Positions 8,472 to 51,162 of a DNA stretch of 64,000 nucleotides are shown in pieces. The notes beneath the pieces were generated by a model. The model searched no databases. It was not told where the DNA came from and was given only the letters and a program-made list of their open reading frames with translations. The DNA comes from a virus (taxonomy: Duplodnaviria > Caudoviricetes). A program made the position numbers and the translations under genes. The stretch is taken from positions 8,136-72,135 of the IMG/VR virus record IMGVR_UViG_3300035544_000079, one strand, 5' to 3'. Numbering within the stretch: position 1 is the first letter of the stretch; the number at the start of each line of letters is the position of its first letter.

Positions 8472-9433
8472 TCCTCACAAAAAGGACTATTTTCTGATAA
8501 TTTTTCACAAAGTTTATTAAAAAAATCATTCCGAAGATAATTCTTACTATAGCTTTGATTATCTTTTTTCTTTAGAACCTCTTGAAAATATATGATATCT
8601 TCATCTTTATAAATATTATACCCTTGAAAACATAAGTTGATAAAAGCTTCTTCAGTATTAGTTAAATTAAATTCCTCCATATAATTATAAAAAAGAGTCT
8701 TTTTATCAACTGAATCTAAAATATCATCAGAAAAATCTATATTTTCAATATCATAATAAATACTTTTTCTGAATCTATTAATTACTTTTATATCAATATC
8801 TTGAACTTTACATAAATCAATTAATCCCTCTCCTTGTATTTTATTAAGTATTTGTTCAACCTCAGTTTCCATTTCCTCTATACTAGAAGGTGTTTTTAAG
8901 TGTTTACCATAAAACATTACCTTATAAACTACTTCATCATTATTTGTATAGAAGAATACCTCTTTATTTTCATTTTTATCTAAGTCATAAATATTTTTAC
9001 TTTCAATTTCAAAAGTTAAAGACATTTTTTCAATAATCTCATTAAGTAAATCATATTTATTGGTATGTTTTTTAACTTTAATATTACAGAAAACCTTGTA
9101 CTTAAACTCTTGAGGGTTTTTTACCATAACCTTTTGAATGTTTAAATAATCTCTTGTCTTTATCTTATCAAACAAGTAGTTATAAAGCTTTTTATTTGCT
9201 TCTTGTTTTTCAAGGTTATTTAAAATACTTATTATCTCTTGTTTATGTTTAGAGACAATATCTGAAATATAATTTTCAGTAGTATCTTTTGGAACATTAT
9301 ACATATGTAATAACTTTTGAGCTAACCTACTACAAAGTCCTTTTGAAACTTTTTCTACTTTATTCTTCTTTTGGACATATTTTCCAAAAATAATCTCAAA
9401 TTGAGACTCCGTTAACTTAACTTTTGTATCAAT
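8468..9433 (-). CDS. Putative sigma-like/transcriptional regulator, 321 aa from an ATT start
   Basis: Frame open 43 codons above the track ATG (9304) to ATT at 9433, 5 nt after AAGGAGG. C-terminus LTNTEEAFINLCFQGY resembles sigma region 4 (weak). Confidence 0.45.
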   Translation of the reverse strand: MDTKVKLTESQFEIIFGKYVQKKNKVEKVSKGLCSRLAQKLLHMYNVPKDTTENYISDIVSKHKQEIISILNNLEKQEANKKLYNYLFDKIKTRDYLNIQKVMVKNPQEFKYKVFCNIKVKKHTNKYDLLNEIIEKMSLTFEIESKNIYDLDKNENKEVFFYTNNDEVVYKVMFYGKHLKTPSSIEEMETEVEQILNKIQGEGLIDLCKVQDIDIKVINRFRKSIYYDIENIDFSDDILDSVDKKTLFYNYMEEFNLTNTEEAFINLCFQGYNIYKDEDIIYFQEVLKKKDNQSYSKNYLRNDFFNKLCEKLSENSPFCED

Positions 9434-9456
9434 CTTTTCCTCCTTGTTTTAAGATG

Positions 9457-9469
9457 AAGTAAGACTTAA
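9457..9469. repeat. 13-bp direct repeat AAGTAAGACTTAA, copy 1 (copy 2 at 10131-10143)
   Basis: Identical 13-mers flank gene 9466..10098, one on its stop codon and one 33 nt above its start. Confidence 0.8.
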
Positions 9470-10098
9470 ATGTCTACTTCAATCTCTGTTTTAGCATTAA
9501 CCTCTGATAAAGTCATATCAATCTCATCAAGAAGATAATTAAGATTTTCTAACTCGTATCTGATTTCATCAATATTTAAACCTACTATTTCTGCACCCCA
9601 CATTTGGGTATAAGTATCAGTTAAAGTCTTAGTTAAATCTTTTGATGTTTGGTTTTTATTAGTCATAGCACTTTCAACTTGTCTTGAAACCTCTTGTTCA
9701 ATTTTATGTTCTTGTTGTTCAACACTCTGTTTAAAAAGGTTATACTGTCTTTCAAGATTATTTAATCTATCAATTTTATAACTAAGAGAAGTTTTTAAAT
9801 CAATTAACTCAATAATTGAATAACTATCTGTTTTCTTCCCTAATTTAAATTCAACCTTAGTTTCTACATTAGCTTTTGCTATAGCTGATTTAACTACTCT
9901 TCTATTCTCAAATAATTTATCAAAACTTTCCTTGTTAGCTTTAACGTCTTTAAGAAACTGTTCCTCAGTTAAATTTGAATTATTTACTAATTTGTTGTTT
10001 ATTTTTGTATCAAAACCAACATAATTATTTAAAAGCCTTTTTTCATAAAGCTTAACCTCGGCTAATGCCCTTGTTATCGACATAGTTTTCTTTCCCAT
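9466..10098 (-). CDS. Conserved coiled-coil protein (MSITRALAEVK...LSEVNAKTEIEV type)
   Basis: 210 aa, mostly helical; termini recall DIP1984-like/DUF proteins (from memory, unverified). Confidence 0.6.
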   Translation of the reverse strand: MGKKTMSITRALAEVKLYEKRLLNNYVGFDTKINNKLVNNSNLTEEQFLKDVKANKESFDKLFENRRVVKSAIAKANVETKVEFKLGKKTDSYSIIELIDLKTSLSYKIDRLNNLERQYNLFKQSVEQQEHKIEQEVSRQVESAMTNKNQTSKDLTKTLTDTYTQMWGAEIVGLNIDEIRYELENLNYLLDEIDMTLSEVNAKTEIEVDI

Positions 10099-10132
10099 AT
10101 TTTCTCCTTTAATTTTTAATTATAAGTCAAAA

Positions 10133-10453
10133 GTAAGACTTAACAAAGAACTATCTAAAATTAAATAGCTAGGTACAAACTAAAACAATTTAATAAATGT
10201 TTAAACTTACCCCTAGATTTTTAGAAAGGTTATATGGTTTAAAATTTAAAACAAAATCTTTAATTATAAGAACTTTAATTTTTAACATTTTACCTTTTAA
10301 GCTTTAGGACTTTTAAGAAAAAGTATTTTCCTAAGCATGGAAATTAATTAAAAGGTTAAATATAATTATTTTACAACACTAATTTAACGAAAATGTTGTA
10401 TTAATTTTTATAGTTTTCATTTAATTATAAAATAGTCCTTTATTAAGTCTTAC
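10133..10453 (-). ncRNA. Candidate structured leader RNA, ~320 nt
   Basis: 10453-10432 pairs with 10154-10133 as a 22-bp helix whose only two non-WC pairs are G-U on the minus strand; internal hairpins; no ORF. Confidence 0.6.
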
Positions 10454-10585
10454 CTATTTTATAGAGTAAGACTCTGTCCAAACATGACTAAAAGTCAAGA
10501 TTTTGAAAGTTTTTATTGCACTTTCTAGTATTGATACCTACATTCTTCTAAATACTTACTTAAATCTATTCGTTTGTACAGAAGA

Positions 10586-10609
10586 ATTATAACAAATAAC
10601 TCCTTAAAG
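10586..10609 (-). promoter_or_regulatory. Promoter CTTTAAG-N11-TATAAT driving the leader RNA
   Basis: ttaagtaat-ctttaag-gagttatttgt-tataat. Confidence 0.65.
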
Positions 10610-10792
10610 ATTACTTAATTTATCAATATTTTTTAAAGAATTTTGAAATTTCTTTTCAATTTCTTGTTTCTCTTTTTCAAACTCTTTGTAAATCCTATGA
10701 ATTAACTGATTAACATGACCCACAGGAATCATTGCTCCATTTTCTTCTGTTAATAAATTAAACATTTCTATTTCAGCTTCTCTTTCAGTCAT
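10604..10792 (-). CDS. Hypothetical protein
   Basis: 62 aa, SD and own promoter. Confidence 0.55.
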   Translation of the reverse strand: MTEREAEIEMFNLLTEENGAMIPVGHVNQLIHRIYKEFEKEKQEIEKKFQNSLKNIDKLSNL

Positions 10793-10820
10793 TTAGTTAT
10801 CCTTATCTCTTATTTGTAGT

Positions 10821-10844
10821 ATTATAGCAAATATTTTCTTAAAG
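10821..10844 (-). promoter_or_regulatory. Promoter CTTTAAG-N11-TATAAT
   Basis: ttaagtaat-ctttaag-aaaatatttgc-tataat. Confidence 0.65.
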
Positions 10845-10856
10845 ATTACTTAATAT

Positions 10857-12347
10857 TTAACCTTTAATCAATCTTTTGCTAAATTTTACTTTATAACCTA
10901 ACTCTTGTTCGATTAACAAGCTCAACTCATCTAGGTTTACATCTTCCTTTGTAATAAAAGCGTCATAAAGAAGTAAATCATGTGAATAGTTCTTAGTAAT
11001 TAAATCAAGTATTTGACTTTCTATACCAAAATAGTAGTGCATAATCGCCTTATTTGTATTCCATTTACTCATATATTTAGCACTTTTATTTCCTCTTGAA
11101 TTATACAGAATATCTTTTCCATTTTTATCTTTCTTTAGAAACTTATTTTGAATAGATTTCTTTAGGTAAGAAAATAATTTCTTACACTCATCATAAATGT
11201 CATAAGCACTTGGGGTATTTTGTAAAATATATTGAATTTTATCTACACCATAATCATTAGCCCAAGAGTTAGTATGTACCCCATATATCCCTAAATTAGC
11301 TCCAAAGAATATTGCTAAATAAAATTCTTTAGCTTCTTTATAAGAAAAGCCTAAATCAACAATTTCTTGTCTACACTTTTCCTTATTATCAATATAGTAT
11401 TTTATCTTAGGAAAATCATGTGTTTTATGATACTTCTCACCTGTTTGATATAAAATAGTAGGAGCTGAATTTTCAATATCTATTTCATAATACCCTTCAA
11501 AAACTTGTTCCCTGATACTTTTTTCTAAGTTTTGTATGCCAATATACTTCTCTCCACCAAAATTAACTAATCTACCTCCATCTTTTCTTTCATAGTTTAA
11601 AAAATGATTTCCATTATTGTACTTGAAATCTAAATTAAATAGAATTATAAAATCAGTACTATACATTAAATCAGTTTCTCCATCTGTAACTCTTTTTATT
11701 AAGTTTTTTACATTCTCTTGATTATAAGTAAACTTATGTCGGTAGCTCATTCTTGGTCTATTAGACGGAGTTATTGCTGTACCTTGTGCTAACTCTTTAA
11801 TTTCATAAGAATATTTATTAATATTTTTACTTAATTCAGTTCTTGTCAAATTTTCTCCTTGCATTAAATCTTTCTTTGTACTGTACTTATTATTATTATT
11901 TGGATTTATATATCCAATTTTGGTTTTAAACTTCTCTCTTGTGTAATATCTTGTCCTAGAACTCATACCATAACTATATAACTCTATAATAAATTCATAC
12001 CGTAGTCTATAAGCAAAAGTCTTTTCAGTAAAACTATTACAAACTTTACTATCTTTAATTGATTCAAAGAAATAGTCAAAGCTTTTCATTTTATTAAACC
12101 TTTTAAGATTTCTAGTTACATTACTAAAATAATCATAATATATTGAAACATATCCTTTATATTCTTTATGTTTAGCAAAGTTACTATTTATAGACTTATT
12201 TATTAAATAAAGTAAGTCAAAAGTATGTCTAAAGTCATAGAATTTATCATAATGGTTATTAAGAAATTTATTTAAATCAAAGTTAGTGCTAATTAATAAA
12301 TCTTTTGATTTAACTTTACTATGTTTCTTCTCTTTATTTTCTTTTAT
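10857..12347 (-). CDS. Minimal PolA-superfamily (TV-Pol-like) polymerase, paralog 1, 496 aa from an ATA start
   Basis: GGRL...QNLEKSIRE; motif A YEIDIENSA; motif B KEAKEFYLAIFFGA; motif C LLLYDAF. Frame extends 86 codons above the track ATG to ATA 5 nt after TAAGGAGG. Confidence 0.65.
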   Translation of the reverse strand: MKENKEKKHSKVKSKDLLISTNFDLNKFLNNHYDKFYDFRHTFDLLYLINKSINSNFAKHKEYKGYVSIYYDYFSNVTRNLKRFNKMKSFDYFFESIKDSKVCNSFTEKTFAYRLRYEFIIELYSYGMSSRTRYYTREKFKTKIGYINPNNNNKYSTKKDLMQGENLTRTELSKNINKYSYEIKELAQGTAITPSNRPRMSYRHKFTYNQENVKNLIKRVTDGETDLMYSTDFIILFNLDFKYNNGNHFLNYERKDGGRLVNFGGEKYIGIQNLEKSIREQVFEGYYEIDIENSAPTILYQTGEKYHKTHDFPKIKYYIDNKEKCRQEIVDLGFSYKEAKEFYLAIFFGANLGIYGVHTNSWANDYGVDKIQYILQNTPSAYDIYDECKKLFSYLKKSIQNKFLKKDKNGKDILYNSRGNKSAKYMSKWNTNKAIMHYYFGIESQILDLITKNYSHDLLLYDAFITKEDVNLDELSLLIEQELGYKVKFSKRLIKG

Positions 12348-12375
12348 AATAACCTCCTTATTTAACTTAAAATGT

Positions 12376-12399
12376 ATTATATCTAGTATTTACTTAAAG
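12376..12399 (-). promoter_or_regulatory. Promoter CTTTAAG-N11-TATAAT for Pol-like paralog 1
   Basis: ctaagtaat-ctttaag-taaatactaga-tataat, just upstream of the SD at 12360. Confidence 0.65.
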
Positions 12400-12758
12400 A
12401 TTACTTAGGTATATAATTTCTTAGTATTAATATTAATATATTTAAAATAGGGTATAACTAGGTTTAGTATCTAGCTCTTGTTTCCTAGAGTTTTTCCAAA
12501 GAGAACCCTTAGCTGACACAAAAACTATACTAATTTTAAGTATTAAATACACTTGTAACTACCATTAATACGAGGTTAAGAGGCAAAAATTTAAATGACA
12601 TTATTTTAGACTTAACGAAAAGTAAGTGTTTTTATTGTACCTAAATAAAAGACTAGAAATATGTAAATTTTTAAATAAAACTTAACCTATCAACCAACAA
12701 AAATCTCAACAAAATATACCTAAACCTTTAAGAATATTACAAATTTCAAAATTTGTTG

Positions 12759-12798
12759 AAATAAAAAAGTGTAAAATCGCTAAAATGCCCCATATATA
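12759..12798 (+). repeat. 40-bp element, inverted copy at 45921-45960
   Basis: aaataaaaaagtgtaaaatcgctaaaatgccccatatata vs aaataaaaaagtgtaaaatcataaaaacgccccatatatt, 35/40 identical. Confidence 0.8.
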
Positions 12799-12944
12799 AG
12801 TAGAAAGGGTTAAGTTATTTAGCCTTATGTATCTTTATCTGTTTTGTTTCTTTCTCCTTTAAGTAATTTTTCATTTGATTCTCCTTTTAAAACTAAATAA
12901 AAATACAACTTATAACACCTCCTACGATAGGACAAAGGAATAAA

Positions 12945-13511: not shown

Positions 13512-13514
13512 GAT

Positions 13515-14960: not shown

Positions 14961-14983
14961 AGAGGCTACACAAAAGGAAATAT

Positions 14984-15346: not shown

Positions 15347-16710
15347 TGATACTTAAGAAAGTTTTTCAATCAAAAGAAAATCCAAGTAAAGTAACTAAAA
15401 ACCCTTTAATTAAAGCAGAAGCTCTTGGATATAAAAATGGACAAAAAAGACCTGTTGGACAACAAATTTATAAACAATGGATTAATCAAATATCTGCTTT
15501 AAGAAATGTTCTAGGAACAACTTCTGAATTAGCAAGTGGTGCTAGTATTAAGTTTTATAAAGTAGATACAAAAGGTAAAAAGAAACTAATACTTAACCCT
15601 AAACAGTTTGATACAATGTTTATGAATGATATAGATGATGTTAGTTCATTTTTGTACAACTACTTTGGACAAATTAAAACTTATGATAATGTCTTTATTA
15701 TCCCTGAAGAAAGTAAATACCCTTACAGAAAAGGTAAAATAGATTTCTTTATTGCTGATAATACTAATTGGTATGCTAATCCAAACGAAACTGGAAAACA
15801 AACTATTGATTCATTTACTTATAGAAGTAATCAAGGAATTGAGACTCAGTATAAGTATGAAGATGTTATTTATATTAGAAAGCCATTAACTTCAAGTAAC
15901 TTATTATATGGTGTTTCAAGACTACAATCTCTTAATGAAGAAGTTAATAGAATACTTACAATGGGAGGTTATGTAGATAATTATATAGCAAGTGGTGCTA
16001 AAAAATCTATTATTATTGGTGCAGACAGTCCAATGTCTCCAAATGACCAAATGGATACTATCGAACAATTTAATTCTTTCTTAAAAGACCCTAATACAAA
16101 AGCTTTAATGATTGATACTGAAAAACTTAATATTAAAGAGGTTTCTGAAAGTTTAGCTTCTACTGATGTTATTAACTTTTTAGTTAAGCTTAATAAACAA
16201 GTTTTAGAATCATATAATTTACCGAAGTTTTTATTAGGAAATTATGCTGAAACAAGTAATGCTGAATTAGTAAGACTTTCAATGAGAATATTCTTTCAAA
16301 GTGTTTTATACCCTGAGTTTTTAAGATTAGGTAGACATTTAACTAGATATGCACAAAATATTTTAAATATTAAAAATATGGAAATTGTATTTGATTTTGA
16401 TGGTATTAATTTATTAGAAGACTCACTAGATGAAAGGTTAAAAGCAACTTCTGAAATGTTTAAATTAGGATTATTGAGTCCGAATGAGGCACGAGTTAAA
16501 CTAGGTGAAGATAGTATAGACTTAGAATCTATGGATAAACACTATAGTCCAAGCTACCTATATTCAGGATTACCAGTAAGTTATGAGAATTATGACCAAG
16601 ATATGGAAGCCAAATTAAATACTGAAAAACCAAGCAATAGTTCAAACCAAGATACACCAAAAGGTGATGGTAGAGAGTCACAATCAGAAGATTTAGGAGG
16701 GCGTGTTTAA
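15346..16710 (+). CDS. Portal protein (HK97-like)
   Basis: YGVSRL and LLSPNEARVKLG motifs; position. Confidence 0.85.
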   Translation: MILKKVFQSKENPSKVTKNPLIKAEALGYKNGQKRPVGQQIYKQWINQISALRNVLGTTSELASGASIKFYKVDTKGKKKLILNPKQFDTMFMNDIDDVSSFLYNYFGQIKTYDNVFIIPEESKYPYRKGKIDFFIADNTNWYANPNETGKQTIDSFTYRSNQGIETQYKYEDVIYIRKPLTSSNLLYGVSRLQSLNEEVNRILTMGGYVDNYIASGAKKSIIIGADSPMSPNDQMDTIEQFNSFLKDPNTKALMIDTEKLNIKEVSESLASTDVINFLVKLNKQVLESYNLPKFLLGNYAETSNAELVRLSMRIFFQSVLYPEFLRLGRHLTRYAQNILNIKNMEIVFDFDGINLLEDSLDERLKATSEMFKLGLLSPNEARVKLGEDSIDLESMDKHYSPSYLYSGLPVSYENYDQDMEAKLNTEKPSNSSNQDTPKGDGRESQSEDLGGRV

Positions 16711-17825
16711 TGTGTTCTCCTTTGAAAGTATGTAGAAAGTGAGGTATTGAGGCACACACTAAAGAACATCTTAATATTTTTGTTAAGAGGAAATATTCAT
16801 TAGATGGGTATGATAACTTATGTAAAAAATGTAAAAATAAATTGGATAAGAAATATAAGTCAAAAGAGTATATTGAAAAGAGACTTGAAGAAAAAGCTAA
16901 CCACCTAAGGAAATGTACTAGGTGTGGACTAGAAGCTAAAAGTATTGATGATTTACACATGTTTACTCCATCTAAGGGAAGCGAATATGGGAGACAGAAT
17001 AAATGTAAATCATGTACTAAAATACTTGATTTTGAAAGAAAGCAAGACCTAGAGATAGCATGGCTTAATAAACATACTTACTATAGAAAATGTAACGACT
17101 GTGGGTTAGAGGCAAATAATGAAAGAAGTTTAATATTATTCATAGAATGTAATCGTACCCCTTTTAATCATAGAAATTTATGTAAGGTATGTAATGCTAA
17201 AAGGAAAAATCATATATTACAAGAGGATATTAGACTTTATAAAAGAAAGTGTACCACCTGTGGATTAGAGGGAAAAACATTAGAGGATTTAGAAAATAAC
17301 TTTGTAATAAATAAAAACATGTTACATGGATACAGTAATTTTTGCTTATCTTGTAGAAGTAAAGAACGTATTAAGGCAATGAACGAAAATATAGAATTAA
17401 GAATACAAGATAGAAAAACGTCAAGAATAAGAAGTGTTAAAAAAAGAAGTCATCCAAAACAGTATTCTTACGACTCTGAATTAGAAGAGTTCCTAATTGA
17501 TACTATATATGAAACTTGTTTAGAAAGAGCCAATAAATTTGGGATTCATCTTCATGTTGACCATATATACCCACTTAATTCAAATCTAATGAGTGGATTA
17601 CACATATCCTCGAATTTACAAATTGTAACTGCTGAGTATAATTTAATGAAACAAAATAAGGTAGGTAAAGAGTTCCCAGAACAAGAAAATGTAACCTCTT
17701 TAAGTGACCATATAGGAAATAGAGATGCCCCTTACAAAGTATTTCAAGCCTTAGGATGTAATATGACTTGGGAAGATTTCTTAGTATATGAGAAAAAATA
17801 CTATAAGGATAGTTTATATGAGTAA
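16710..17825 (+). CDS. Multi-zinc-finger HNH endonuclease with in-frame TGA at codon 11
   Basis: ATG 16710 with AGGAGG SD; four CxxC..CxxC repeats, the first reading KVCRK*GIEA; C-terminal HVDHIYPL..GLH..NLQ..N. The track start (TTG 16842) lacks an SD. Confidence 0.75.
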
Positions 17826-23951: not shown

Positions 23952-24341
23952 ATGGCAAAAAGACAATTAGTAACACTAGATTTAGATAAAGAATTTATTT
24001 GGACTCCAACAGATGAGATTGATGAAGAAAAGCCTACTAAATTCTACTATAAAGCTTTAAGTAATAGAGAATATGAAAAAATAAATGCACATATTATTAA
24101 AGCAGAAGATGGAGTTATTTTCTCAGAAGAGGGCGTAGTAAATTATGATACTGTTAAATTAAAATTAGTAAAAATTGAAGATATTGAAATAGATGGTTCA
24201 TTAAAAAATTTTGATAAAAAAGATATTACAGATAAAATATTAGACTCATTACCAAGAGAGTGGATTGCTGATTTAGCAACTCAGATTAGAGTAACTTCTA
24301 TTTTAAAAGGTAAGGAAATAGAGGAATTAAAAAAGTCTTAG
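23952..24341 (+). CDS. Tail assembly chaperone (G)
   Basis: Between tube and tape measure; ends at slippery A-AAA-AAG (24329-24335). Confidence 0.75.
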   Translation: MAKRQLVTLDLDKEFIWTPTDEIDEEKPTKFYYKALSNREYEKINAHIIKAEDGVIFSEEGVVNYDTVKLKLVKIEDIEIDGSLKNFDKKDITDKILDSLPREWIADLATQIRVTSILKGKEIEELKKS

Positions 24342-24688
24342 CAGTACAATTTGACGAAAAATTCTCAGAGTGGAATTGCTCAACTTGTACTGATAGAGAC
24401 AAGATAACAAGAGGTTGTAAAAGAAAAGATTATAAAGGAGATAAGCCTCCTTTTTATCAAACTTATAAAGTTAAAGAATATACTTTTAAAGGCTGTCCTC
24501 ACTCAGATACAGATTGGGGTATATTAGATGAAGCACAGAGTAGCTATGAGTTTTACTCTGATGGTTATTTACCAAATAAAGGTACTATACTAGACCAATC
24601 TAATTTTTTCATAATAACATCTAAATTAATAAAAACACAGATAAGTACAACCGAAAGAGAAAGACTAGAAAAAGCTAAAGGAAAATAG
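24329..24688 (+). CDS. -1 frameshift extension of the tail chaperone (GT-like, ~245 aa fusion)
   Basis: -1 frame open 24335-24688 with no ATG: VLAVQFDEKFSEWNCSTC...GYLPNKGTILDQ...; absent from the ORF track. Confidence 0.75.
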   Translation, partial: KKVLAVQFDEKFSEWNCSTCTDRDKITRGCKRKDYKGDKPPFYQTYKVKEYTFKGCPHSDTDWGILDEAQSSYEFYSDGYLPNKGTILDQSNFFIITSKLIKTQISTTERERLEKAKGK

Positions 24689-41523: not shown

Positions 41524-41526
41524 GGT

Positions 41527-42142: not shown

Positions 42143-42154
42143 ATTTTTCTCCTT

Positions 42155-42466
42155 ATTTTTTAACTTTCTAATTTAATTTTTATGCTAGTGAATTATATTG
42201 CTAAGAGTGTCAAGATAATCTATTTGTTCTTCACCAATACTAATTCCAATGAATCCACAGTCAACATCACTTGCATTGTCATAATCTTCTTTAGAATAAA
42301 CACATGGTGTTCCATCTACCATAATAACAACCAAGCCGTGTTTTTTAAGATTTTCCAACGCTCTTTTTACTCTCGTTATTGCCGACTTTTGTTCCTTAGT
42401 TAAATCACAGTATTCAGTAGCCATTTGTATCTCCTTTAATTTTTTAACTTTCTAATTTAATTTTTA
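42155..42466. repeat. 28-bp direct repeats at 42155-42182 and 42439-42466
   Basis: attttttaactttctaatttaattttta occurs twice, each beside an SD. Confidence 0.8.
42185..42424 (-). CDS. Hypothetical protein
   Basis: 79 aa, SD, flanked by direct repeats. Confidence 0.6.
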   Translation of the reverse strand: MATEYCDLTKEQKSAITRVKRALENLKKHGLVVIMVDGTPCVYSKEDYDNASDVDCGFIGISIGEEQIDYLDTLSNIIH

Positions 42467-42749
42467 AAATTATGCAATTTATCCCAAAATTTTTTAGGAC
42501 ACCTAATCTTACCAATTTTTACCTACTTTTTAAGTTTCTCCTACCAAATAAACCTTTTTAGTCTTTCTTGATACATTATTCATTTAGAGCTTTATCTTCA
42601 ATATTTGTATAGAGAAAGAGGTGTTAAATTAAGTTAGGATTAGTCTTTACATTATTTCTCCTTTTGTTTTTTTTATGAAATGATTATACAAGAATATTTC
42701 CTATGGTTTGCTTAAAGGGGTATTTACAAAGTAATATGTAAAAAGAACT

Positions 42750-43913
42750 CTAAGAGGTTAATTCCTCGAAATCTCCTTTTATTAAATCTTTACTAAACCT
42801 TTTAGGAATTTTTTTCTCTTTAATGTATTTAAACATTTCCTCATCAGAGACCTTGTAATTTCCCCATATATCCATTCTATTAAACTGTACTAATTTTTCA
42901 AAACTAAATAAATATCCATCTCCTCTTATAAAATTTTTTAAAGTTATATTAACTTTTGCTTCTAATATCTGTAAATTATCAACATGGTCTAACCCATTTA
43001 TATATTTACCATTTAGTGGGACTATATGGTCTATGTGAAATTCTGTTGAATATCTTTTATTGAAATACTCCCTAACCCTATAAAGCTTTTTCTCATATTT
43101 TTTATCTTCTTTACTTCCTCTTAGCCTTTTAGCCATTTTCATAGCTGTAACTCTTCTACCATGTATAGGATTATACTTACTTTTATAATTAACTTTTTTA
43201 ATGTAATTTAAAGTACATTGGTTACTTTTTCTCCTATACTCAGGGTCATTACTACGTCTCTCTCTATTTAAAGCATTCATACACGATTTACACTTCCTAA
43301 ATTTTAGTATAGAAGGTTTGGAGGATTTAAAACCTTGATTCCCAAGAAGTTCTACTATATTTTCATCTTGTAAGAACAATTCCCCACACCTTGAACACTT
43401 ACCTTGTATCAGTTCTTTACCTTTTGTTAAATTTTTTACTTCAAGTATAAATTTATCTTTTGACATAACTCCTTTTAATTGCTCTTGTTTATGTAAATAC
43501 CTTAAAGTCTTTTCATACTCTTCTCTTAGTCTATGGAAATTTTTAGCAAGGATTGTGTAAGGAACTCTTTTATCTATAGGTATTTTACCTTTTTTATCAC
43601 TAAAACATTTATGACATATACCTTTATACTCATTTACCTCATTATAATATATCCTAAACTGTTTGCCCATATCTTTATTTTTATAGAATTTTGTTTTACA
43701 ACAAGTACATTTAAAAAACCCTTTAGTCTTTGTATTCATATTTTCTAAACAAGTTGAGCAATATTCTTGTTTTTTAAATAAAATATTTTCAGGAAAAGGT
43801 CTTCTATGTAACTTTTTTACTCTTTTCCACTCATTGTTAGGATTATATCTGTTAAACTTTTTACCACAATCCTTACAAGTATATTCTTCCTCTTCTACAT
43901 ATTCATATTTCAT
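42750..43913 (-). CDS. Zinc-finger HNH homing endonuclease
   Basis: Multiple CxxC; FHIDHIVPLNG..NGL..VDNLQIL..N. Confidence 0.8.
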   Translation of the reverse strand: MKYEYVEEEEYTCKDCGKKFNRYNPNNEWKRVKKLHRRPFPENILFKKQEYCSTCLENMNTKTKGFFKCTCCKTKFYKNKDMGKQFRIYYNEVNEYKGICHKCFSDKKGKIPIDKRVPYTILAKNFHRLREEYEKTLRYLHKQEQLKGVMSKDKFILEVKNLTKGKELIQGKCSRCGELFLQDENIVELLGNQGFKSSKPSILKFRKCKSCMNALNRERRSNDPEYRRKSNQCTLNYIKKVNYKSKYNPIHGRRVTAMKMAKRLRGSKEDKKYEKKLYRVREYFNKRYSTEFHIDHIVPLNGKYINGLDHVDNLQILEAKVNITLKNFIRGDGYLFSFEKLVQFNRMDIWGNYKVSDEEMFKYIKEKKIPKRFSKDLIKGDFEELTS

Positions 43914-45511
43914 TCTAATAATTCCTCGAAATTACTTTCTAATTTTTCTTTACTAAAAGTTAAATCATAACCTAACTCTTTCATAACAATTCTACTTAAT
44001 TCCTCTAAGTCAATATTATTAGGAGATATAAATTCATCAAATAATAATAAACTAATATCATACCTTTTACAAACTATATCTAGGATTTGACTTTCTACAC
44101 CATTATAAATAAAACTTAATACTTTAGGGTTATTCCACTTATCAAGGTTTTTAGAAGTACCTCTTGTATTTAATACTTTGTACTTTGTTTTCAACTCTTT
44201 AGCATTTTCTAAGGCTTTTTGTTTAAAATATTCCCCTAATTCATTATATAAGTAAATAATCTCTTCAACAATGTTTTGTACTTTAGTATTATTAAGAGCT
44301 TTTACTAAATTATCTCCTCCTATACTTTTTACTATAGTTGAATACTGTTCAAGGCTTTCAAGATTAGTTGATAAATTAGCTCCAAACAATAAAGCTGTAA
44401 AATACTGTTTAGCTTGTTTATAAGTAAAACCTTCTTTTACAAGCTCTTGTCTGAATTGTTCTTTATCTCTAATATATTCCTCAATATAATAAAAGTTACA
44501 CTTCTTTGCAATAAACCTCCAATAAAGTTGATAAAATACATTTATAACTGCCGTATTAATATCATAAGCATATTGCCCTTCAAACATTACTGCCCTAAAT
44601 TTACTAGGCAACTGTTGTGGAACAATATTACTATTATAATTAGCCCTTTGGTAAAGTCTCCCTCCACCTTTTCTTTGATAAACAAATGTACTTTCTAACC
44701 CTTTTAAATCCCTAAAATCAGAAACTACCGAAGCAAAGTGAATACAATTTAACATATTACTATTGTTACTAACATTCCTTTTTAAAAAAGAAATACAATC
44801 ATCAATTCTTTCATCATTTAGTTTAGGGTAATGTTGGAAGTCAATATCTCCCTTTAACTCTTTTTTAGTAAGAACTTGTCTATGTTGTTTTGATGGTAAT
44901 GTTTTAAATACTTCCATATACTTTTCCATAAAATCTTCTGTTTCTCTGTTAGACAACCCTAATTCCTCCTTCATTTGTTTTCTAGTTAAATAGATTTCTT
45001 TATTCATAATATTATAACATATCTTTTCTTCAAACTTTCTTAAGTAATATGTTATTAGTTTATCTTCTGTTGAGACAAATGCTAAATAGACATCTTCTAA
45101 AATACCTTCTTTTATTCTATACCCTTTAGTATATCCCTTAGTATTATAGGTATTTATTTCATTATCTCTTAAGTAAAACCTATACCCTAAATCTTCCTCA
45201 AAGATTTCATAAAAGATATGTTTCTTATGTCTTGTTGCATAAGTACCTAATATCTTATCTAATGTTTTAAAACTTATTGAGTAAAGGTTCTTATCCTCAG
45301 AGTGTGAAAGAATAGAACCTTTTTGAATTAAGTTAAAGAGATATATAATAGAGTATGTTTGCTTAAAGTTTTTTTGAAGGATTTTATACTTACTTATTAT
45401 CTTATTGTAATTAACCTTAGAGACAAACTCTGTAGGTATCTTATCTTTAGTATTCTTAGTATCAGTACTAATTGTATTAGTCTTATGTTTATTCTTATCT
45501 ATACTTTTTAT
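43910..45511 (-). CDS. Minimal PolA-superfamily (TV-Pol-like) polymerase, paralog 2, 533 aa from an ATA start
   Basis: GGGRLY..QQLPSKFR; motif A YAYDINTA; motif B KQAKQYFTALLFGA; motif C LLLFDEF. Frame open 168 codons above the track ATG to ATA 5 nt after AAAGGAG. Confidence 0.65.
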   Translation of the reverse strand: MKSIDKNKHKTNTISTDTKNTKDKIPTEFVSKVNYNKIISKYKILQKNFKQTYSIIYLFNLIQKGSILSHSEDKNLYSISFKTLDKILGTYATRHKKHIFYEIFEEDLGYRFYLRDNEINTYNTKGYTKGYRIKEGILEDVYLAFVSTEDKLITYYLRKFEEKICYNIMNKEIYLTRKQMKEELGLSNRETEDFMEKYMEVFKTLPSKQHRQVLTKKELKGDIDFQHYPKLNDERIDDCISFLKRNVSNNSNMLNCIHFASVVSDFRDLKGLESTFVYQRKGGGRLYQRANYNSNIVPQQLPSKFRAVMFEGQYAYDINTAVINVFYQLYWRFIAKKCNFYYIEEYIRDKEQFRQELVKEGFTYKQAKQYFTALLFGANLSTNLESLEQYSTIVKSIGGDNLVKALNNTKVQNIVEEIIYLYNELGEYFKQKALENAKELKTKYKVLNTRGTSKNLDKWNNPKVLSFIYNGVESQILDIVCKRYDISLLLFDEFISPNNIDLEELSRIVMKELGYDLTFSKEKLESNFEELLE

Positions 45512-45690
45512 ACTTACTCCTTTCTATTAATATATTATAATAATCCCTAACAACCTTTCGACAAAGGAAGCAACACGCCTGTATATATTGTACATTTTAG
45601 CATTTTTTTATGTAAAAAGTCCCTTGCCATGGGGTCTAGCACCCGTAATCGTTAAGTATTTAATCCTCTATATTTTATTTTTAAAATCTT

Positions 45691-45885: not shown

Positions 45886-45920
45886 ATTCCTCCTTTCTTA
45901 TCTATTAGATATTCTCTATT

Positions 45921-45960
45921 AATATATGGGGCGTTTTTATGATTTTACACTTTTTTATTT
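45921..45960 (-). repeat. Second copy of the 40-bp element (see 12759-12798)
   Basis: 35/40 identity; directly upstream of the HTH gene SD. Confidence 0.8.
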
Positions 45961-46005
45961 AACTAAATTTAAAAATTTGTATCCTTATTAAAAGGAATGG
46001 CTTAA

Positions 46006-46527: not shown

Positions 46528-46713
46528 CTATTTCTTCCATTCTTCTAAGTCTTTAATAATAAGGCATCTTCTATCTAAATAATTAAGGCTTTGTTTTAAA
46601 TCTCTTTGACCTAATATTCCTCCATAAGAATTTGAGATAATAATTAATCTTTCCTCTGTTTTTACTGTGTTAATTACCCTAATAATATCTTCTATAGTAT
46701 TTAAAGTTTCCAA
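46528..46713 (-). CDS. Hypothetical protein
   Basis: TTG start with SD. Confidence 0.5.
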   Translation of the reverse strand: METLNTIEDIIRVINTVKTEERLIIISNSYGGILGQRDLKQSLNYLDRRCLIIKDLEEWKK

Positions 46714-46725
46714 TTCTTTCTCCTT

Positions 46726-46872
46726 TTAAAGTAAAATATATAACAAAATACAAAGTATAATTAAAATAACAAGGAAATTAAGACCTATTGAGTCTACTTT
46801 AATCTCATCTTCCATTTCTTTAATTTCTTCTTTTGTTCTATATTGTTTACCTTTATAAAAATAAGCTCCCAT
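46726..46872 (-). CDS. Small membrane-anchored protein
   Basis: Start MGAYFY after GGAGG; C-terminal TM. Confidence 0.5.
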   Translation of the reverse strand: MGAYFYKGKQYRTKEEIKEMEDEIKVDSIGLNFLVILIILCILLYILL

Positions 46873-46873
46873 A

Positions 46874-47074
46874 TCAATCCTCCACAAATATATTATTCTT
46901 AGCTCTATATTCAAGCTCTTCTTTTAAAGTATCTACATAAATACCCTTATAACCGTCATTTATATAAAGCTCTTTATTAAGGTCTTCATGTTGAACATAA
47001 TCGTGAGTAAACCTTGAAACAAGCTCTGTTCCATCAGGTGTTATAATACTATTTCTTAGGATTCTTTTTTCCAT
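46874..47074 (-). CDS. Conserved phage hypothetical protein, possibly shortened
   Basis: NSIITPDGTELVSRFTHDYVQH and ELEYR motifs. Confidence 0.55.
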   Translation of the reverse strand: MEKRILRNSIITPDGTELVSRFTHDYVQHEDLNKELYINDGYKGIYVDTLKEELEYRAKNNIFVED

Positions 47075-47338
47075 CTATTTCTTCACCTTTCCTTTACCTT
47101 TACTATTGCCTTTAGTTCCAATAGGAACAATCTTACTATCAATCTCTTTAGTACCTCTTGATTTACGTTCTTTTTCAATAGCTTTCAACAAAGGTTCATA
47201 AAGAGCTTTTTCTCTTTTACTTTGTTTTGAACTAATTATCTTAATAATATGTACTAAATGCTCATTTGAATAAGAACTTACTTTCTTAATTTCTTCTTTA
47301 ATTTGTTTTGTTAATTTCTTTTCTTCGTCTTTGTTCAT
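47075..47338 (-). CDS. Hypothetical basic protein
   Basis: 87 aa, SD. Confidence 0.55.
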   Translation of the reverse strand: MNKDEEKKLTKQIKEEIKKVSSYSNEHLVHIIKIISSKQSKREKALYEPLLKAIEKERKSRGTKEIDSKIVPIGTKGNSKGKGKVKK

Positions 47339-47346
47339 TATATCCT

Positions 47347-47697
47347 CTACATACTTAATTTACTAAGATTTTTCTTAAGATTTTGTTTAAAATCATTATA
47401 TTTTAACATAAGTTTATAAACTTCTTTCTTAATTAAAAGTTCTTGATAATTACTATCCTTACAGTATAAATGAATGTTACTTCCTAAATTATAAAATTCA
47501 GTAATATCCTTATCTAATTGAATATACTTCTCAGCTTTTGCCGACTTAGATACTTTAGTAAGGCTCTTCTCTATTTTACTTTTATAAGTAAAGCACATAG
47601 TACTCATACTGTTTAAAATATCCTCTTTGTATTCATTTGCTGATAAGCTACTTAATAAACCCAGTACTGTAACTCCTGTTACTATAATCTTTTTCAT
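47347..47697 (-). CDS. Putative secreted protein
   Basis: Signal peptide MKKIIVTGVTVLGLLSSLSA. Confidence 0.6.
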   Translation of the reverse strand: MKKIIVTGVTVLGLLSSLSANEYKEDILNSMSTMCFTYKSKIEKSLTKVSKSAKAEKYIQLDKDITEFYNLGSNIHLYCKDSNYQELLIKKEVYKLMLKYNDFKQNLKKNLSKLSM

Positions 47698-47713
47698 TTA
47701 TTCTCCTTCTTTT

Positions 47714-48037
47714 CTAATCTTGTTTTTCTGTTAATTTATAATCTACTTCTAATAAAATATCAAAGCAATTATAAACACCATTAATCTTATTATCTCTAAT
47801 TATGTAATAAGTAAGTATATACTCATAAACCTTAAAAGAACATAAAAATGGAATAAATAATCTAAACATAGTGAACAAATTATATTCAGATAATCTTTTA
47901 TATTTCTCAGCTTTTAAAATACCCTTGGTTGTATTAAGTGTTTCCCAAGATATAACTCCAAACCATATTGTATAAATTCCTATTGAAAGAAAGTTAAACA
48001 AATAACCTACTAGAACTATTAAATAAATATCATTCAT
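47714..48037 (-). CDS. Membrane protein
   Basis: Two hydrophobic segments. Confidence 0.55.
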   Translation of the reverse strand: MNDIYLIVLVGYLFNFLSIGIYTIWFGVISWETLNTTKGILKAEKYKRLSEYNLFTMFRLFIPFLCSFKVYEYILTYYIIRDNKINGVYNCFDILLEVDYKLTEKQD

Positions 48038-48384
48038 TTATTCCCCTTATTTACTTTGTTTAAAGAATCTAATAATTCTTGTTTTTCTTTAACTTCCTTT
48101 AAATACTCTTGTATTTCTAAATCATCTACTATATCTTCATCTTTTACAGCTATTTCTAGTAAGTCATTTATATAATCATCCATATTAATAATTACTCCTT
48201 TAAAGTCATCTGTAAAAGGACAATAAAGATAAATTTCTATTTCACCTTTTTCTTCAGCTAAAAATAAAGGGTAAAGTTCCTCTAATATTTCTTCTTTATC
48301 TTCTTCTGTTTCCTCATAACAAATAATATCTCTTCCTCTGTTTCCATCAATATCTGCTCCGTAACTATGTTCAATATAAAACAT
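48034..48384 (-). CDS. Hypothetical acidic protein
   Basis: YIEHSYGADIDGNRG motif; own promoter. Confidence 0.6.
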   Translation of the reverse strand: MFYIEHSYGADIDGNRGRDIICYEETEEDKEEILEELYPLFLAEEKGEIEIYLYCPFTDDFKGVIINMDDYINDLLEIAVKDEDIVDDLEIQEYLKEVKEKQELLDSLNKVNKGNK

Positions 48385-48423
48385 ATTTTCTCCTTTTGTT
48401 TTTTATTTTGTTTTGATAAGATA

Positions 48424-48447
48424 ATTATAATAGAAGTTTTATTAAAG
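48424..48447 (-). promoter_or_regulatory. Promoter CTTTAAT-N11-TATAAT
   Basis: Same spacing as the other copies. Confidence 0.55.
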
Positions 48448-48489
48448 TAAGCTTAAATATAATTAAGTAAGTATAAATAGTAGTATATA

Positions 48490-48553
48490 TTATAGAAAGG
48501 TATTATAGAAAGGTGTTATAGAAAGGTGTTATAGGGAAGTAGTATAGAAAGTA
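48490..48553. repeat. Tandem 13-bp iteron-like array (TTATAGAAAGGTG)
   Basis: Five units: ttatagaaaggta, ttatagaaaggtg x2, ttatagggaagta, gtatagaaagta. Confidence 0.8.
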
Positions 48554-48566
48554 GTATTAGAGGGAA

Positions 48567-48788
48567 CTAGCCCTCTAAAGATTCTTGTAAATTTTTTATT
48601 TTAGTTTCTAGAATAAATATTTCATTAAGCAAGATTTGGTTAGGACAATTTGAAATATTACCTAGTATTAAATCATTTAAAGAATAACTTATATTAGGGT
48701 CTATCTGCTTTGACTTTTCAGTTATAAGTGTCTTGAGAGTTTTTATTCTCTCAAGTTTTTCTTGGTATGTTATTTTAGTAGTTTCCAT
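48567..48788 (-). CDS. Hypothetical protein
   Basis: 73 aa, SD. Confidence 0.55.
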   Translation of the reverse strand: METTKITYQEKLERIKTLKTLITEKSKQIDPNISYSLNDLILGNISNCPNQILLNEIFILETKIKNLQESLEG

Positions 48789-48814
48789 AGTTCTCCTTTA
48801 TTTTGAGATTGATA

Positions 48815-49063
48815 CTAAACAAGTATCTTCGTTATAATGTATTTGAGATGGTTTGATTTAGTAACTAACCATGTTTGTAGCTCATCTCTTGTATAAGTTG
48901 GTTGAGGCATATTTCTAGCCCTACAATTAGTTCTTTGTGTAGTATGAGTTTCAGTAATAAATACTTTAGGCATTTTTCTACCACAAGATTTACATAATCC
49001 TCTTTTATAAAAACCTTTTTTAGGTCTTTCTTGTTTACATTTATAGCAATATTTTGTTTTAAA
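48815..49063 (-). pseudogene. Truncated homing-endonuclease remnant related to 61661..62494
   Basis: 82 open codons starting at TTT 5 nt after AAGGGAG; CYKC..CKSC; QRTNCRARNMPQPTYTRDEL aligns with QKLSCKNRNMDMPNYTKDWF; no nuclease domain. Confidence 0.6.
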
Positions 49064-49091
49064 TTTGACTCCCTTAAATTATATTTATTTT

Positions 49092-49115
49092 ATTATAACA
49101 AAAGGAGTCTTAAAT
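49092..49115 (-). promoter_or_regulatory. Promoter TTTAAG-N11-TATAAT
   Basis: atttaag-actccttttgt-tataat. Confidence 0.6.
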
Positions 49116-49120
49116 ATTGC

Positions 49121-50434
49121 TTAATTTTTGTTAAGGTTTTTATCTTGTTCTACTTCTAACATATCAATCTTGAATAAGTTCCTTGAAACCTCTCCATATT
49201 TTTTATGATAAGTAATAGCTTTAACTTCCCCAACATTACCTCTAAATCCTGCTCCATCAGCCCAAGCATCTCTAGGGGGTAAGTTTTTATGAATCTCAAT
49301 AGACATCATAGCATCTTCTTTAGATAACATTTTATGATTAGAATGTAAATGACCTATATTCCAATATCTATATTTAGTTTCTGAGAAAATATCAATATTG
49401 TCTTCAATCATACATTCTGTTAATTTAGTTTTATTTAAGATGGTATGCCCATGTGAAAAGCCTAACAGCACTTTATTAAACTGATAGTACTGTGTTAGCC
49501 TATTATCCCCAACAATCTCTACTCTAGGTTCATCTTTAAAATAAGCCCGTAATACTGCTTTTAAGTAGTAACTAGAGTTCTCACTATGATTACCTGAAAC
49601 AGATAATACTTTTACATATTTATGCTTTTGTAATGCTTTTTTCACTAACTCAATCATAATACTAAAAGTTTCTTCAATAATTCTACTATGCCTACTATCC
49701 ACATCTAGCGAATGACCTGAAACCGTTTGTTTTGTATCATCATTTGCATGAAGTAAATCCCCCATTTCGGCTATTAAACAAGTTTCAGAATTAGGAGCAA
49801 CTGTCATAAGATAATCAAAACTTCCTAAAATCCACTTTCTAGCAATTTTTAAATCATAGTTATATCCACTAATTTCTTCTAAAGCTAACATTGCAATATG
49901 TAAATCTGTGTAAGGGTACATAGTCAATAAATCTGAATTTTGAGCTAAAGTTAAATCACATTTAATAGGTGTGTATTTTTCATTAGCCTTATTTAAAATA
50001 CTTGCTAATGCTGTTTCTACTCTTTCCATCTCAGCATCTTCTGTTAACTCTCTTTTGACTAAGGATTTAATCTCTTTCCTAAGAACATTATTGTTATGTT
50101 GTTGAGTCATAACAGATTTTCTAAGCTTTAAGTTTTCTTTTACAACACTCTCTAATTCTTCCTCTAATTTATGTTCAATATCATAATCTGCTCCAGATTC
50201 AATAGCTAAGTCTTTATTTAATTTAAGAACACTTTCAGCTCTTTCTGCTTTAGTAGCATTTTTAAAACCAATTTGATAAGCAAGGTATCTAAAAGAATTA
50301 TAATCAACCTTGTAATCCTCACAAAGAGTTCTTAAAGGTCTATCCTTATCTTGATATTCTTGTAAGAACTTATTAAAATCTTCTTGACTTAAGTCAAACC
50401 TATCTTTAAATTCATTTACTAATTTTGTTTTCAT
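49121..50434 (-). CDS. Metallophosphoesterase with N-terminal HTH/coiled coil
   Basis: TDLH, MGDLLH, SGNH, SHGH, IGHLH. Confidence 0.8.
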   Translation of the reverse strand: MKTKLVNEFKDRFDLSQEDFNKFLQEYQDKDRPLRTLCEDYKVDYNSFRYLAYQIGFKNATKAERAESVLKLNKDLAIESGADYDIEHKLEEELESVVKENLKLRKSVMTQQHNNNVLRKEIKSLVKRELTEDAEMERVETALASILNKANEKYTPIKCDLTLAQNSDLLTMYPYTDLHIAMLALEEISGYNYDLKIARKWILGSFDYLMTVAPNSETCLIAEMGDLLHANDDTKQTVSGHSLDVDSRHSRIIEETFSIMIELVKKALQKHKYVKVLSVSGNHSENSSYYLKAVLRAYFKDEPRVEIVGDNRLTQYYQFNKVLLGFSHGHTILNKTKLTECMIEDNIDIFSETKYRYWNIGHLHSNHKMLSKEDAMMSIEIHKNLPPRDAWADGAGFRGNVGEVKAITYHKKYGEVSRNLFKIDMLEVEQDKNLNKN

Positions 50435-50443
50435 TTATCTCCT

Positions 50444-50800
50444 TTAATCTTTATCATCTTCAAATATTTCACCACAGTCCTCACAATTAGTATCTAATGA
50501 GCTAATTTCCTCACCACAGTTAGGACAAGTAAGGTAATCAAGAGGACTATATCCACTACTTAAACAAATATCTAATCTTTCAGCTTCTTTAAGAAATTCT
50601 TGATTATCAGTTACTAATGTAATATCTCCTTTTTCAATCTCTCCATAAATTTCCGAGTGTTTACCTAATACCTCACCGAAGTAAATTTCCTTACCTATTA
50701 AAGCATCAACTTCTTCTTGTGTTGCTAAAAACCTACCTTCTAAATCACCATTTCTACCACAATCCCAATAGAAATCATATAGATTAACTTGTTCTTCCAT
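50444..50800 (-). CDS. Hypothetical protein with C-terminal zinc ribbon
   Basis: DCGRNGDLEG motif; CPNC..CEDC. Confidence 0.65.
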   Translation of the reverse strand: MEEQVNLYDFYWDCGRNGDLEGRFLATQEEVDALIGKEIYFGEVLGKHSEIYGEIEKGDITLVTDNQEFLKEAERLDICLSSGYSPLDYLTCPNCGEEISSLDTNCEDCGEIFEDDKD

Positions 50801-51162
50801 TAATTTTCCTCCTCAATAATATTAATTAAATCATAAACTTGTTCCTCTAAACAAGTTCCACCATTATAAAAATTAAATTCGTATTCTACTTGTCCACTCT
50901 CCTTAACCCTGTATTCAAAAATATCTCCGTTGGGGTCTTTTTCTTCATTTTGTATTTGGTAAATCCTATCATTATTAATATAGTAACCATAGTCAGCTAA
51001 AGTATCATAACAAAACGCTCTAAAATCACTTTCATCAGTTAAATCATAATAACTAGGAACTTTAATATTCTCCTCTTGAACTAATTTATTAATAAAGTCT
51101 TTTGGACTCATTCCTATTGAGACTCTTTTTAGAGTTCCTTTGTGTCTTTCATAATAACTTAT
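50800..51162 (-). CDS. Hypothetical protein, 120 aa from an ATA start
   Basis: Frame open 17 codons above ATG 51111 to ATA 5 nt after AAGGAG. Confidence 0.55.
   Translation of the reverse strand: MSYYERHKGTLKRVSIGMSPKDFINKLVQEENIKVPSYYDLTDESDFRAFCYDTLADYGYYINNDRIYQIQNEEKDPNGDIFEYRVKESGQVEYEFNFYNGGTCLEEQVYDLINIIEEEN

Follow-up and report, generated by a model that had tools for sequence, protein, structure and literature searches.

Probable translation initiation at AUA and AUU codons behind strong Shine-Dalgarno sequences in five early genes of an uncultured low-GC phage

Five early genes of an uncultured low-GC phage very probably begin translation at near-cognate codons, AUA in four of them and AUU in one, each placed behind a strong Shine-Dalgarno (SD) sequence, as judged from sequence comparison. 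They are five among about 77 genes, and all of them belong to early or replication modules. The window, that is, the whole stretch of DNA analysed, has 64,000 nucleotides and is part of a 72-kb virus record. SD-directed initiation at AUA or AUU is a documented mechanism; what is unusual here is its density and the family-wide conservation of ATA in one group of proteins. The genes and signals concerned are the following, numbered by window position.

6825..7631, minus strand: ThyX (Pfam Thy1), probable ATA start at 7631-7629
7637..7643, minus strand: SD AAAGGAG of ThyX, 5 nt before ATA 7631, sharing bases with the upstream gene's TAA stop (7644-7642)
8468..9433, minus strand: function-unassigned gene, 321 aa from ATT 9433-9431; a public call from ATG 9304 would give 278 aa
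9439..9445, minus strand: SD AAGGAGG of the ATT gene, spacer AAAAG before ATT 9433
10857..12347, minus strand: PolA-fold paralogue 1, 496 aa from ATA 12347-12345; public call P0001 from ATG 12089, 410 aa
12353..12360, minus strand: SD TAAGGAGG of paralogue 1, spacer TTATT before ATA 12347
about 12374-12385, minus strand: -10-like TAGATATAATAC, just upstream of the paralogue 1 SD
43910..45511, minus strand: PolA-fold paralogue 2, 533 aa from ATA 45511-45509; public call P0010 from ATG 45007, 365 aa
45517..45523, minus strand: SD AAAGGAG (AGAAAGGAG including flank) of paralogue 2, spacer TAAGT before ATA 45511
50800..51162, minus strand: phrog_6035 protein, 120 aa from ATA 51162-51160; public call P0157 from ATG 51111, 103 aa
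51168..51174, minus strand: SD AAAGGAG of the phrog_6035 gene, spacer AAATA before ATA 51162

An earlier note on this DNA had listed the sites at 12347, 45511, 9433 and 51162, each with a strong SD, a 5-nt spacer and ATA or ATT, and all of these elements are present there on the minus strand. Its count of four genes was right for those four and overlooked a fifth, ThyX at ATA 7631. The distance, which had been given as exactly 5 nt, is 5 nt at all four sites, a value that shifts with the choice of GGAG or GGAGG as the end of the motif; after alignment to the 16S tail the spacing is 4-5 nt, and in relatives it is 5, 6 and 8 nt. The supposed likeness to ATG genes also holds, for the gene at 10098 reads AAGGAG, AAAAT, ATG, and the SD-led ATG and TTG genes of the minus strand have spacers of 4-7 nt. 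The near-cognate sites have matches of 7-9 nt to AGAAAGGAGGT followed by 5 nt, while the ATG genes of the same strand have AAAGGAG followed by 4-7 nt. A scan of the entire 72-kb record for this signature, in both orientations, gave only the four sites and one weak antisense match (AAAGGA + 9 nt + ATC). At 12347, 51162 and 7631 the SD is followed after 2 nt by a further in-frame ATT or ATA, so the true start codon could be one triplet earlier in these three genes.

ThyX probably starts at ATA 7631. Its sole canonical alternative is TTG 7655, which lies 8 codons upstream in frame, inside the upstream gene, and has no SD. In the ThyX orthologue of the related assembly L003, AAAGGAG is followed by ATATT and ATA and by 27 codons without a canonical start, and the called ATG would cut off conserved N-terminal residues.

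The stretches between the near-cognate codons and the first canonical starts of the other four genes (12089, 45007, 9304 and 51111) are, as the earlier note had read them, free of stops over 86, 168, 43 and 17 codons, respectively, and they also lack ATG, GTG and TTG. With about 0.1 stop per random codon, an estimate from rough coding-strand base frequencies, a stop-free run would be expected by chance with a probability of about 4e-8 for 168 codons and about 2e-4 for 86 codons, so these two extensions exceed chance; the 17-codon case is argued from homology instead. The extensions are coding by the evidence of alignments and of a predicted structure. Full-length homologues of 480-524 aa cover the extensions of both PolA-fold paralogues, and in the AF2 model of paralogue 2 (pLDDT 83) the N-terminal domain, residues 23-168, is folded with pLDDT about 76-96. 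The proposed homology of the two Pol-like extensions is borne out by the alignment of the paralogues, which opens at residues 38 and 48, within both extensions (30% identity, E 2e-42). In paralogue 1, ATA AAA GAA matches the TTG AAA GAA with which the gene of L006 starts. The 43-aa extension of the ATT 9433 gene is strongly conserved in L003, where the orthologue (322 aa) has a TTG start two codons earlier, and the orthologue in L009 carries AAGGAGG, AAGAG and ATT at the aligned position. As for the phrog_6035 gene, the profile match begins at residue 2 of the gene product and position 2 of the profile, and M1 of P0158 and P0159 falls exactly on the ATA 51162 codon in the alignment.

The two Pol-like proteins have, according to structure prediction, the Pol I-type palm/fingers fold. 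A Foldseek search of the PDB with the paralogue 2 model gave 78 matches at E<=1e-3, and all 48 among the matches listed are Pol I, KlenTaq, Bst, Pol theta or apPol; the polymerase matches have a probability of 1.00, but their TM reaches only some 0.3 across about 340 columns. For the PolA-fold protein, 197 homologues were obtained. Neither a Pfam (DNA_pol_A) nor a PHROG match was found for these paralogues, and a PDB profile search had no relevant match; family A membership by sequence, with the canonical catalytic set of motifs A, B and C, is not supported. The alignment of PolA-fold homologues does show invariant D, K, E/D and F positions. The phage's true PolA is encoded at 62487-63953. The promoter motif GATATAAT is not supported as a feature of the whole genome, with 10 matches against 8.6 expected; its occurrence is local and confined to the region in front of the PolA-fold genes.

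On whether orthologues keep the near-cognate codon, the relatives are divided: several independent assemblies keep ATA or ATT, and in others ATG or TTG stands in its place. At the aligned start positions ATG occurs in L010, TTG in L006 and L003, ATT in L009 and ATA in L003, L005, L011 and L012. In the PolA-fold gene, an SD followed by 5-8 nt and ATA is found in L003 and L004 (two sequencing runs), L005, L011 and L012, and L003 also has a TTG, without an SD, 15 codons downstream of its ATA. Among the PolA-fold starts, ATA is the commonest codon (6 of 11, with TTG in 2 and ATG in 3), a census of 11 genes only, which were chosen in part from truncated calls. In the tree of this family, ATA is distributed over four separate parts and across deep branches, and TTG is nested within an ATA clade. 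Among cultured phages, megablast and tblastn gave no close relative, and the terminase has only about 23% identity to that of T5-like phages. Single proteins and alignment A1, used as queries against IMG/VR, yielded no relatives, and in a scan of JGI metagenomes only L007 and L008 matched.

The AUA and AUU codons would presumably be decoded by the initiator fMet-tRNA. A strong SD (AAAGGAG or AAGGAGG), with a spacer as in the phage's ATG genes (4-7 nt), may set the near-cognate codon in the P site, and the weak codon would lower output, to roughly 10-30% of AUG if the extended-SD sites of Staphylococcus aureus are taken as the analogy. Such reduced initiation might tune the dose of promoter-proximal early proteins. 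Deliberate low-level control, as the earlier note had proposed, fits the retention of ATA across diverged PolA-fold members and the published reporter data (PMC13009471); the IF3 sensitivity that it had offered alongside is purely conjectural. A bolder reading, rather unlikely, is that AUA is the selected and ancestral start of the PolA-fold family, an early protein heading a promoter-proximal transcript, that the lineage has also adopted AUA or AUU in several further early genes, and that the low-GC bacterial host, or initiation fidelity altered by the phage upon infection (for example, through IF3 activity), makes of near-cognate initiation a programmed timer or dose switch, not a mere attenuator.

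Tolerance of such starts by the host may let ATG, TTG, ATA and ATT swap freely at one position among related phages. In a quite unlikely alternative nothing is tuned: the host, or a phage factor, relaxes start discrimination, the four codons are nearly equivalent and they change by neutral drift. The toggling among ATG, TTG, ATA and ATT at homologous positions of closely related phages speaks for such drift, and so does the number of near-cognate starts, five in about 77 genes when S. aureus as a whole has four reported. However, all of the approximately 27 late genes start at ATG and most of the early ones at ATG or TTG, while ATA is enriched specifically in one family (6/11); the use of ATG in late genes and the excess of ATA in the PolA-fold family make the pattern look gene-specific and not a genome-wide drift. 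Moreover, the early proteins scanned showed neither an IF3-like protein nor any other translation factor.

It is decidedly unlikely that ribosomes initiate solely at the first downstream ATG and that the open stretches upstream are untranslated remnants. The public gene calls (P0001, P0010 and P0157) do use those ATGs, and ATG 12089 is preceded at 6 nt by a weak AAAGG, from which a short isoform of paralogue 1 could also arise. An SD comparable to those of the near-cognate sites, however, is absent at all four ATGs, there being none at 45007, 9304 and 51111, and it is each open frame that is headed by a strong one. In addition, up to 168 codons stay free of stops in spite of a GC content of 27%, the extensions are conserved as protein and include invariant residues, and that of paralogue 2 forms a confidently modelled domain.

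An error of assembly or sequencing, or a defective variant genome, in which ATG is the real codon and its G became A or T by misreading or mutation, is very improbable. The close relative L010 does carry ATG in place of ATA 51162, as AAAGGAG, AAGTA, ATG, with identical SD and spacing. Nevertheless, five errors in one contig would be needed, each hitting a start codon exactly at its third base and in genes otherwise without lesion, and other samples, assembled independently, show ATA or ATT again at equal positions (L003, L004, L005, L009, L011 and L012). The flanking sequences differ at many bases, so the assemblies that share ATA or ATT are diverged lineages.

Extremely improbable is recoding, either from an ORF upstream through a frameshift or a read-through stop, or by a code in which ATA is Met: the window does have a start-less frame ahead of the tape-measure gene, and its HNH gene contains an in-frame TGA, but the frames in question open merely 4-14 codons upstream of the ATA or ATT, every site has its own strong SD, paralogue 1 has no gene upstream (a divergent intergenic region), and internal ATA aligns with I, L and V just as ATT does, a weak check, as the homologues have their code in common. 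The marks of programmed frameshift or readthrough, namely an upstream ORF or in-frame stop and a frame without its own ribosome-binding site, were not found, and paralogue 2 has two in-frame stops directly upstream of its SD. A SECIS-like hairpin past the in-frame TGA at 16740 was unsupported (z = -1.1). A changed code with ATA as Met or TGA as sense was considered and rejected, TAA, TAG and TGA all being used as stops (50/18/8), and so was an initiator tRNA encoded by the phage, the 72-kb record having no tRNA gene.

The host is most likely bacterial, on the basis of a GH108 muramidase and of the SD sequences AAAGGAG and AAAGGAA, which pair with the tail CCUCCUUU. An archaeal host, including an Asgard one, was rejected on the same two grounds, the GH108 endolysin and the AAA-extended SD. 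Genome scans for a prophage relative gave none and no clue to the host.

Standard gene callers were expected by the earlier note to truncate these proteins, and the public protein collection indeed has 410, 365 and 103 aa where the near-cognate starts give 496, 533 and 120 aa. Calling restricted to ATG, GTG and TTG loses up to one third of such proteins, for example 168 of the 533 residues of a PolA-fold protein, which make up its folded N-terminal domain, and SD-anchored start finding that admits ATA and ATT would mend the affected calls in phages of low GC content. Well-studied bacteria very rarely have near-cognate starts, and a phage with five of them together with an ATA-rich family constitutes a compact natural test set. 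This could reveal how the strength of the SD makes up for weakness in the codon, as well as whether start-codon strength sets the dose of early proteins in phages.

NCBI translation table 11 already permits ATT, ATC, ATA and CTG as bacterial initiators. While ATA and ATT are thus allowed, the public calls for the phage genes begin at ATG only, and consequently the products are stored truncated. In Escherichia coli, infC and pcnB have AUU starts with weak initiation that is discriminated by IF3, and infC is autoregulated. There a near-cognate AUN codon limits a dose-sensitive protein, as is proposed here for the phage; the present starts differ in that they belong to phage genes and are mainly AUA and not AUU, and the IF3 feedback loop is a feature of infC. 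Near-cognate starts in E. coli give only 0.02-3% of AUG (10.1101/063800). In S. aureus, infC, ccpN and citZ (AUA) and cvfC1 (AUU) have extended SDs and reach 10-30% of AUG in reporters, and the AUA start of ccpN is shared by S. aureus and B. subtilis (PMC13009471). The phage sites resemble these S. aureus sites in their low-GC context, in the strong or extended SD near AUA or AUU and in the conservation of the codon among relatives. In S. aureus, translational attenuation was measured by reporters, whereas the phage starts are predicted from sequence. Furthermore, S. aureus has four such cellular genes in about 2,800, whereas the phage has five in 72 kb, in addition to a family of proteins that most often start at ATA.

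Near-cognate start codons, ATA or ATT behind a strong Shine-Dalgarno (SD) motif, appear to open four genes of this phage and probably a fifth:

12347, minus strand: ATA start of protein 1, a PolA-fold protein (496 aa); TAAGGAGG-TTATT-ATA
45511, minus strand: ATA start of protein 2, its paralogue (533 aa); AAAGGAG-TAAGT-ATA
9433, minus strand: ATT start of protein 3 (321 aa); AAGGAGG-AAAAG-ATT
51162, minus strand: ATA start of protein 4, a phrog_6035 protein (120 aa); AAAGGAG-AAATA-ATA
7631, minus strand: ATA, probable start of ThyX, in frame; TAA-AGGAG-AGATT-ATA

The first four, all on the minus strand, agree exactly with the SD and ATA/ATT sites described in the earlier note. The first in-frame ATG, GTG or TTG comes 86 (12347), 168 (45511), 43 (9433) and 17 (51162) codons further on and lacks a comparable SD. 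Early genes started by ATG or TTG, including gene 10098, to which the earlier note had compared these sites, carry the same AAAGGAG motif with spacers of 4-7 nt. The SD-led genes of the window fall into two ribosome-binding classes: AAAGGAG(A) in early minus-strand genes (25 of 33 have G at core position 4) and AAAGGAA in late plus-strand virion genes (A there in 14 of 17); the strong early type precedes all five near-cognate starts. ThyX (Pfam Thy1) has been called from TTG 7655, which has no SD and lies within the upstream gene, and an AAAGGAG overlaps the stop codon of that gene, with ATA 7631 in frame 5 nt further. In the related contig L003, thyX reads AAAGGAG-ATATT-ATA GAA with 27 codons devoid of a canonical start, and the called ATG would drop a conserved N-terminal segment; in the contig L009 it starts with ATG. 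Near-cognate starts are thus found in 5 of about 77 genes of at least 60 aa in the window, every one in the early modules, and the 8 kb of the record before the window contain no further one.

The window comprises bases 8136-72135 of the 72,135-bp IMG/VR virus record (GC 25-31%), for which no close relative was found among cultured phages. A plus-strand virion module at about 12.9-41.5 kb (terminase, portal, capsid, tape measure, DGR region and GH108 muramidase) is flanked by two minus-strand early/replication modules, which encode RNR with a LAGLIDADG insert, ThyX, a Clp-like protease, a true PolA, a 5'-3' exonuclease, a D12 methylase and SbcCD-like nucleases. In the 1084-aa RNR large subunit (2736-5990, minus strand), which starts at TTG, residues 626-682 are a LAGLIDADG_3 domain; this is presumably an insert, either an intein or a homing endonuclease. 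In addition, 500 nt without any ORF (10099-10603) separate two minus-strand genes, and a start-stop mini-ORF behind a perfect SD, AAGGAG-AAATA-ATG-TAA (42647-42663, minus strand), lies in the 325 nt from gene 42750-43913 to gene 42185-42424.

The 5' extensions at the four sites are coding. Proteins 1 and 2 share 30% identity (E 2e-42) in an alignment whose first residues, 38 and 48, fall within the two extensions, which bears out the argument of the earlier note that these are homologous and hence coding. Homologues of 480-502 aa from a search of 5.8 billion proteins cover 96% of ATA-started protein 1, and full-length homologues of protein 2 (490-524 aa, exhaustive HMMER search) have N-termini aligning to its residues 15-28. 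Furthermore, the AlphaFold model of protein 2 (pLDDT 83, pTM 0.78) is confidently folded over residues 23-168, the match of protein 4 to phrog_6035 begins with residue 2 and profile position 2, and an orthologue of protein 3 with 56% identity shows high conservation across the 43-residue extension. Initiation only at the downstream ATGs is very unlikely, as it would throw away this conserved, folded sequence in favor of codons without an SD. Pfam and PHROGs do not recognize the Pol-like proteins; the label is justified as a statement about the predicted fold only, because the top Foldseek matches of the protein 2 model are all family-A DNA polymerases (probability 1.0, TM about 0.3).

Judged from alignments, the near-cognate codons occupy the positions of the start codons of relatives. 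The ATA of protein 4 falls exactly on Met-1 of the public homologues P0158 (81% identity) and P0159 (48%), and the P0158 contig reads AAAGGAG-AAGTA-ATG there. Protein 3 keeps its ATT in L009 (AAGGAGG-AAGAG-ATT) with unrelated sequence upstream of the SD, and starts two codons earlier in L003 (GGAGG-TAAAAG-TTG, 322 aa), while ATA AAA GAA of protein 1 is aligned with TTG AAA GAA in the related locus L006. The question of the earlier note, whether orthologues keep ATA or have ATG, has a divided answer: ATT is kept in L009 and ATA in L003 ThyX, with ATG in the P0158 contig and TTG in L003 and L006. Assembly or sequencing error concealing true ATGs is still less probable, since it would have to strike the third base of the start codon five times in one contig, and the same codons recur in independent assemblies despite many differences at neighboring bases. 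That a frameshift, readthrough or code change supplies the N-termini is scarcely credible: each site has its own SD, the frames are open only 4-14 codons upstream, TAA, TAG and TGA all end genes (50/18/8), and, as a weak check, internal ATA aligns with I, L and V as ATT does. No tRNA genes were found in the record.

Two other features of the window resemble recoding. An HNH homing-endonuclease-like gene inserted after the portal gene (16710-17825, plus strand), with repeated CxxC...CxxC zinc modules and an HVDHIYPxN...NLQ motif, opens with 10 codons from ATG 16710, an in-frame TGA (16740-16742) and a 360-codon frame having no canonical start over 33 codons. In the alignment with the public homologue P0163, the first CxxC has the TGA in place of its second Cys. 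A SECIS-like hairpin after the TGA is not supported (z = -1.1), and the likeliest cause is a nonsense mutation in a homing endonuclease undergoing decay. A 125-codon frame without a start codon of any kind (24314-24688, plus strand) overlaps gene 23952-24341 at its 3' end, directly upstream of the 1309-aa tape-measure gene, and the layout of 23952-24688 matches that of the classic tail-assembly-chaperone programmed frameshift, for which it would be a candidate.

Among 11 PolA-fold family genes with readable DNA, a small sample partly picked from truncated calls, the starts are as follows, with a strong SD before every ATA:

Proteins 1 and 2 of the window: ATA
L003 and L004 (two runs): ATA, SD + 8 nt; called TTG without SD
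L005: ATA, AAAGGA + 6 nt; no canonical start over 85 codons
L011: ATA, AAGGAGG-ATTAC-ATA; 41 codons
L012: ATA, AAGGAGG-TTTAAT-ATA; 139 codons
L006 and L007: TTG
L009, L015 and L013: ATG

In a maximum-likelihood tree, four separate parts of the family have ATA and the TTG pair sits within an ATA clade, with branch lengths of 0.25-1.2 substitutions per site. Because an unconstrained third base would not outlast such divergence, ATA is either retained or repeatedly re-selected, as far as this small, partly truncation-derived sample tells.

The host is most likely bacterial rather than archaeal: the phage has a GH108 muramidase, and its SD shows three leading A's, enriched well above background, which would match a 16S tail of CCUCCUUU. 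At homologous starts, ATG, TTG, ATA and ATT replace one another freely among related phages, which suggests that the host tolerates near-cognate start codons fairly well. The SD of the PolA-fold gene is preceded at 15-25 nt by a -10-like TAGATATAATAC in the window and several relatives. At this distance, the conserved element TAGATATAAT(A/T)C is found at about 12374-12385 (minus strand) of the window, 490-502 of L003 and 412-421 of L007, in L011 and L015, and, before the SD of the protein 3 gene, in L009 (about 12113-12122). The latter motif has no genome-wide enrichment; its placement suggests short-leader, promoter-proximal transcripts, which would fit strong transcription combined with a weak start.

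Near-cognate initiation behind a strong SD is an established mechanism. In Staphylococcus aureus, Ribo-RET showed that infC, ccpN and citZ start at AUA and cvfC1 at AUU, in each case behind an extended SD, with reporters at about 10-30% of AUG (PMC13009471), and in Escherichia coli AUA, AUU, AUC and CUG reach 1-2% of AUG, or 0.02-3% by construct (10.1101/063800). Because of these precedents, the most likely reading is that a strong SD compensates a weak start codon and would keep the dose of certain early proteins low; the ATA and ATT starts may also depend on IF3. The core interpretation of the earlier note, initiation at ATA or ATT, is supported by the four sites, their coding extensions and the orthologous start positions, and the public calls of these proteins are truncated, as it had claimed of gene callers. 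What is notable here is the density of such starts, about 6% of genes in the phage versus about 0.1% in S. aureus, and a protein family in which ATA is the predominant start codon.
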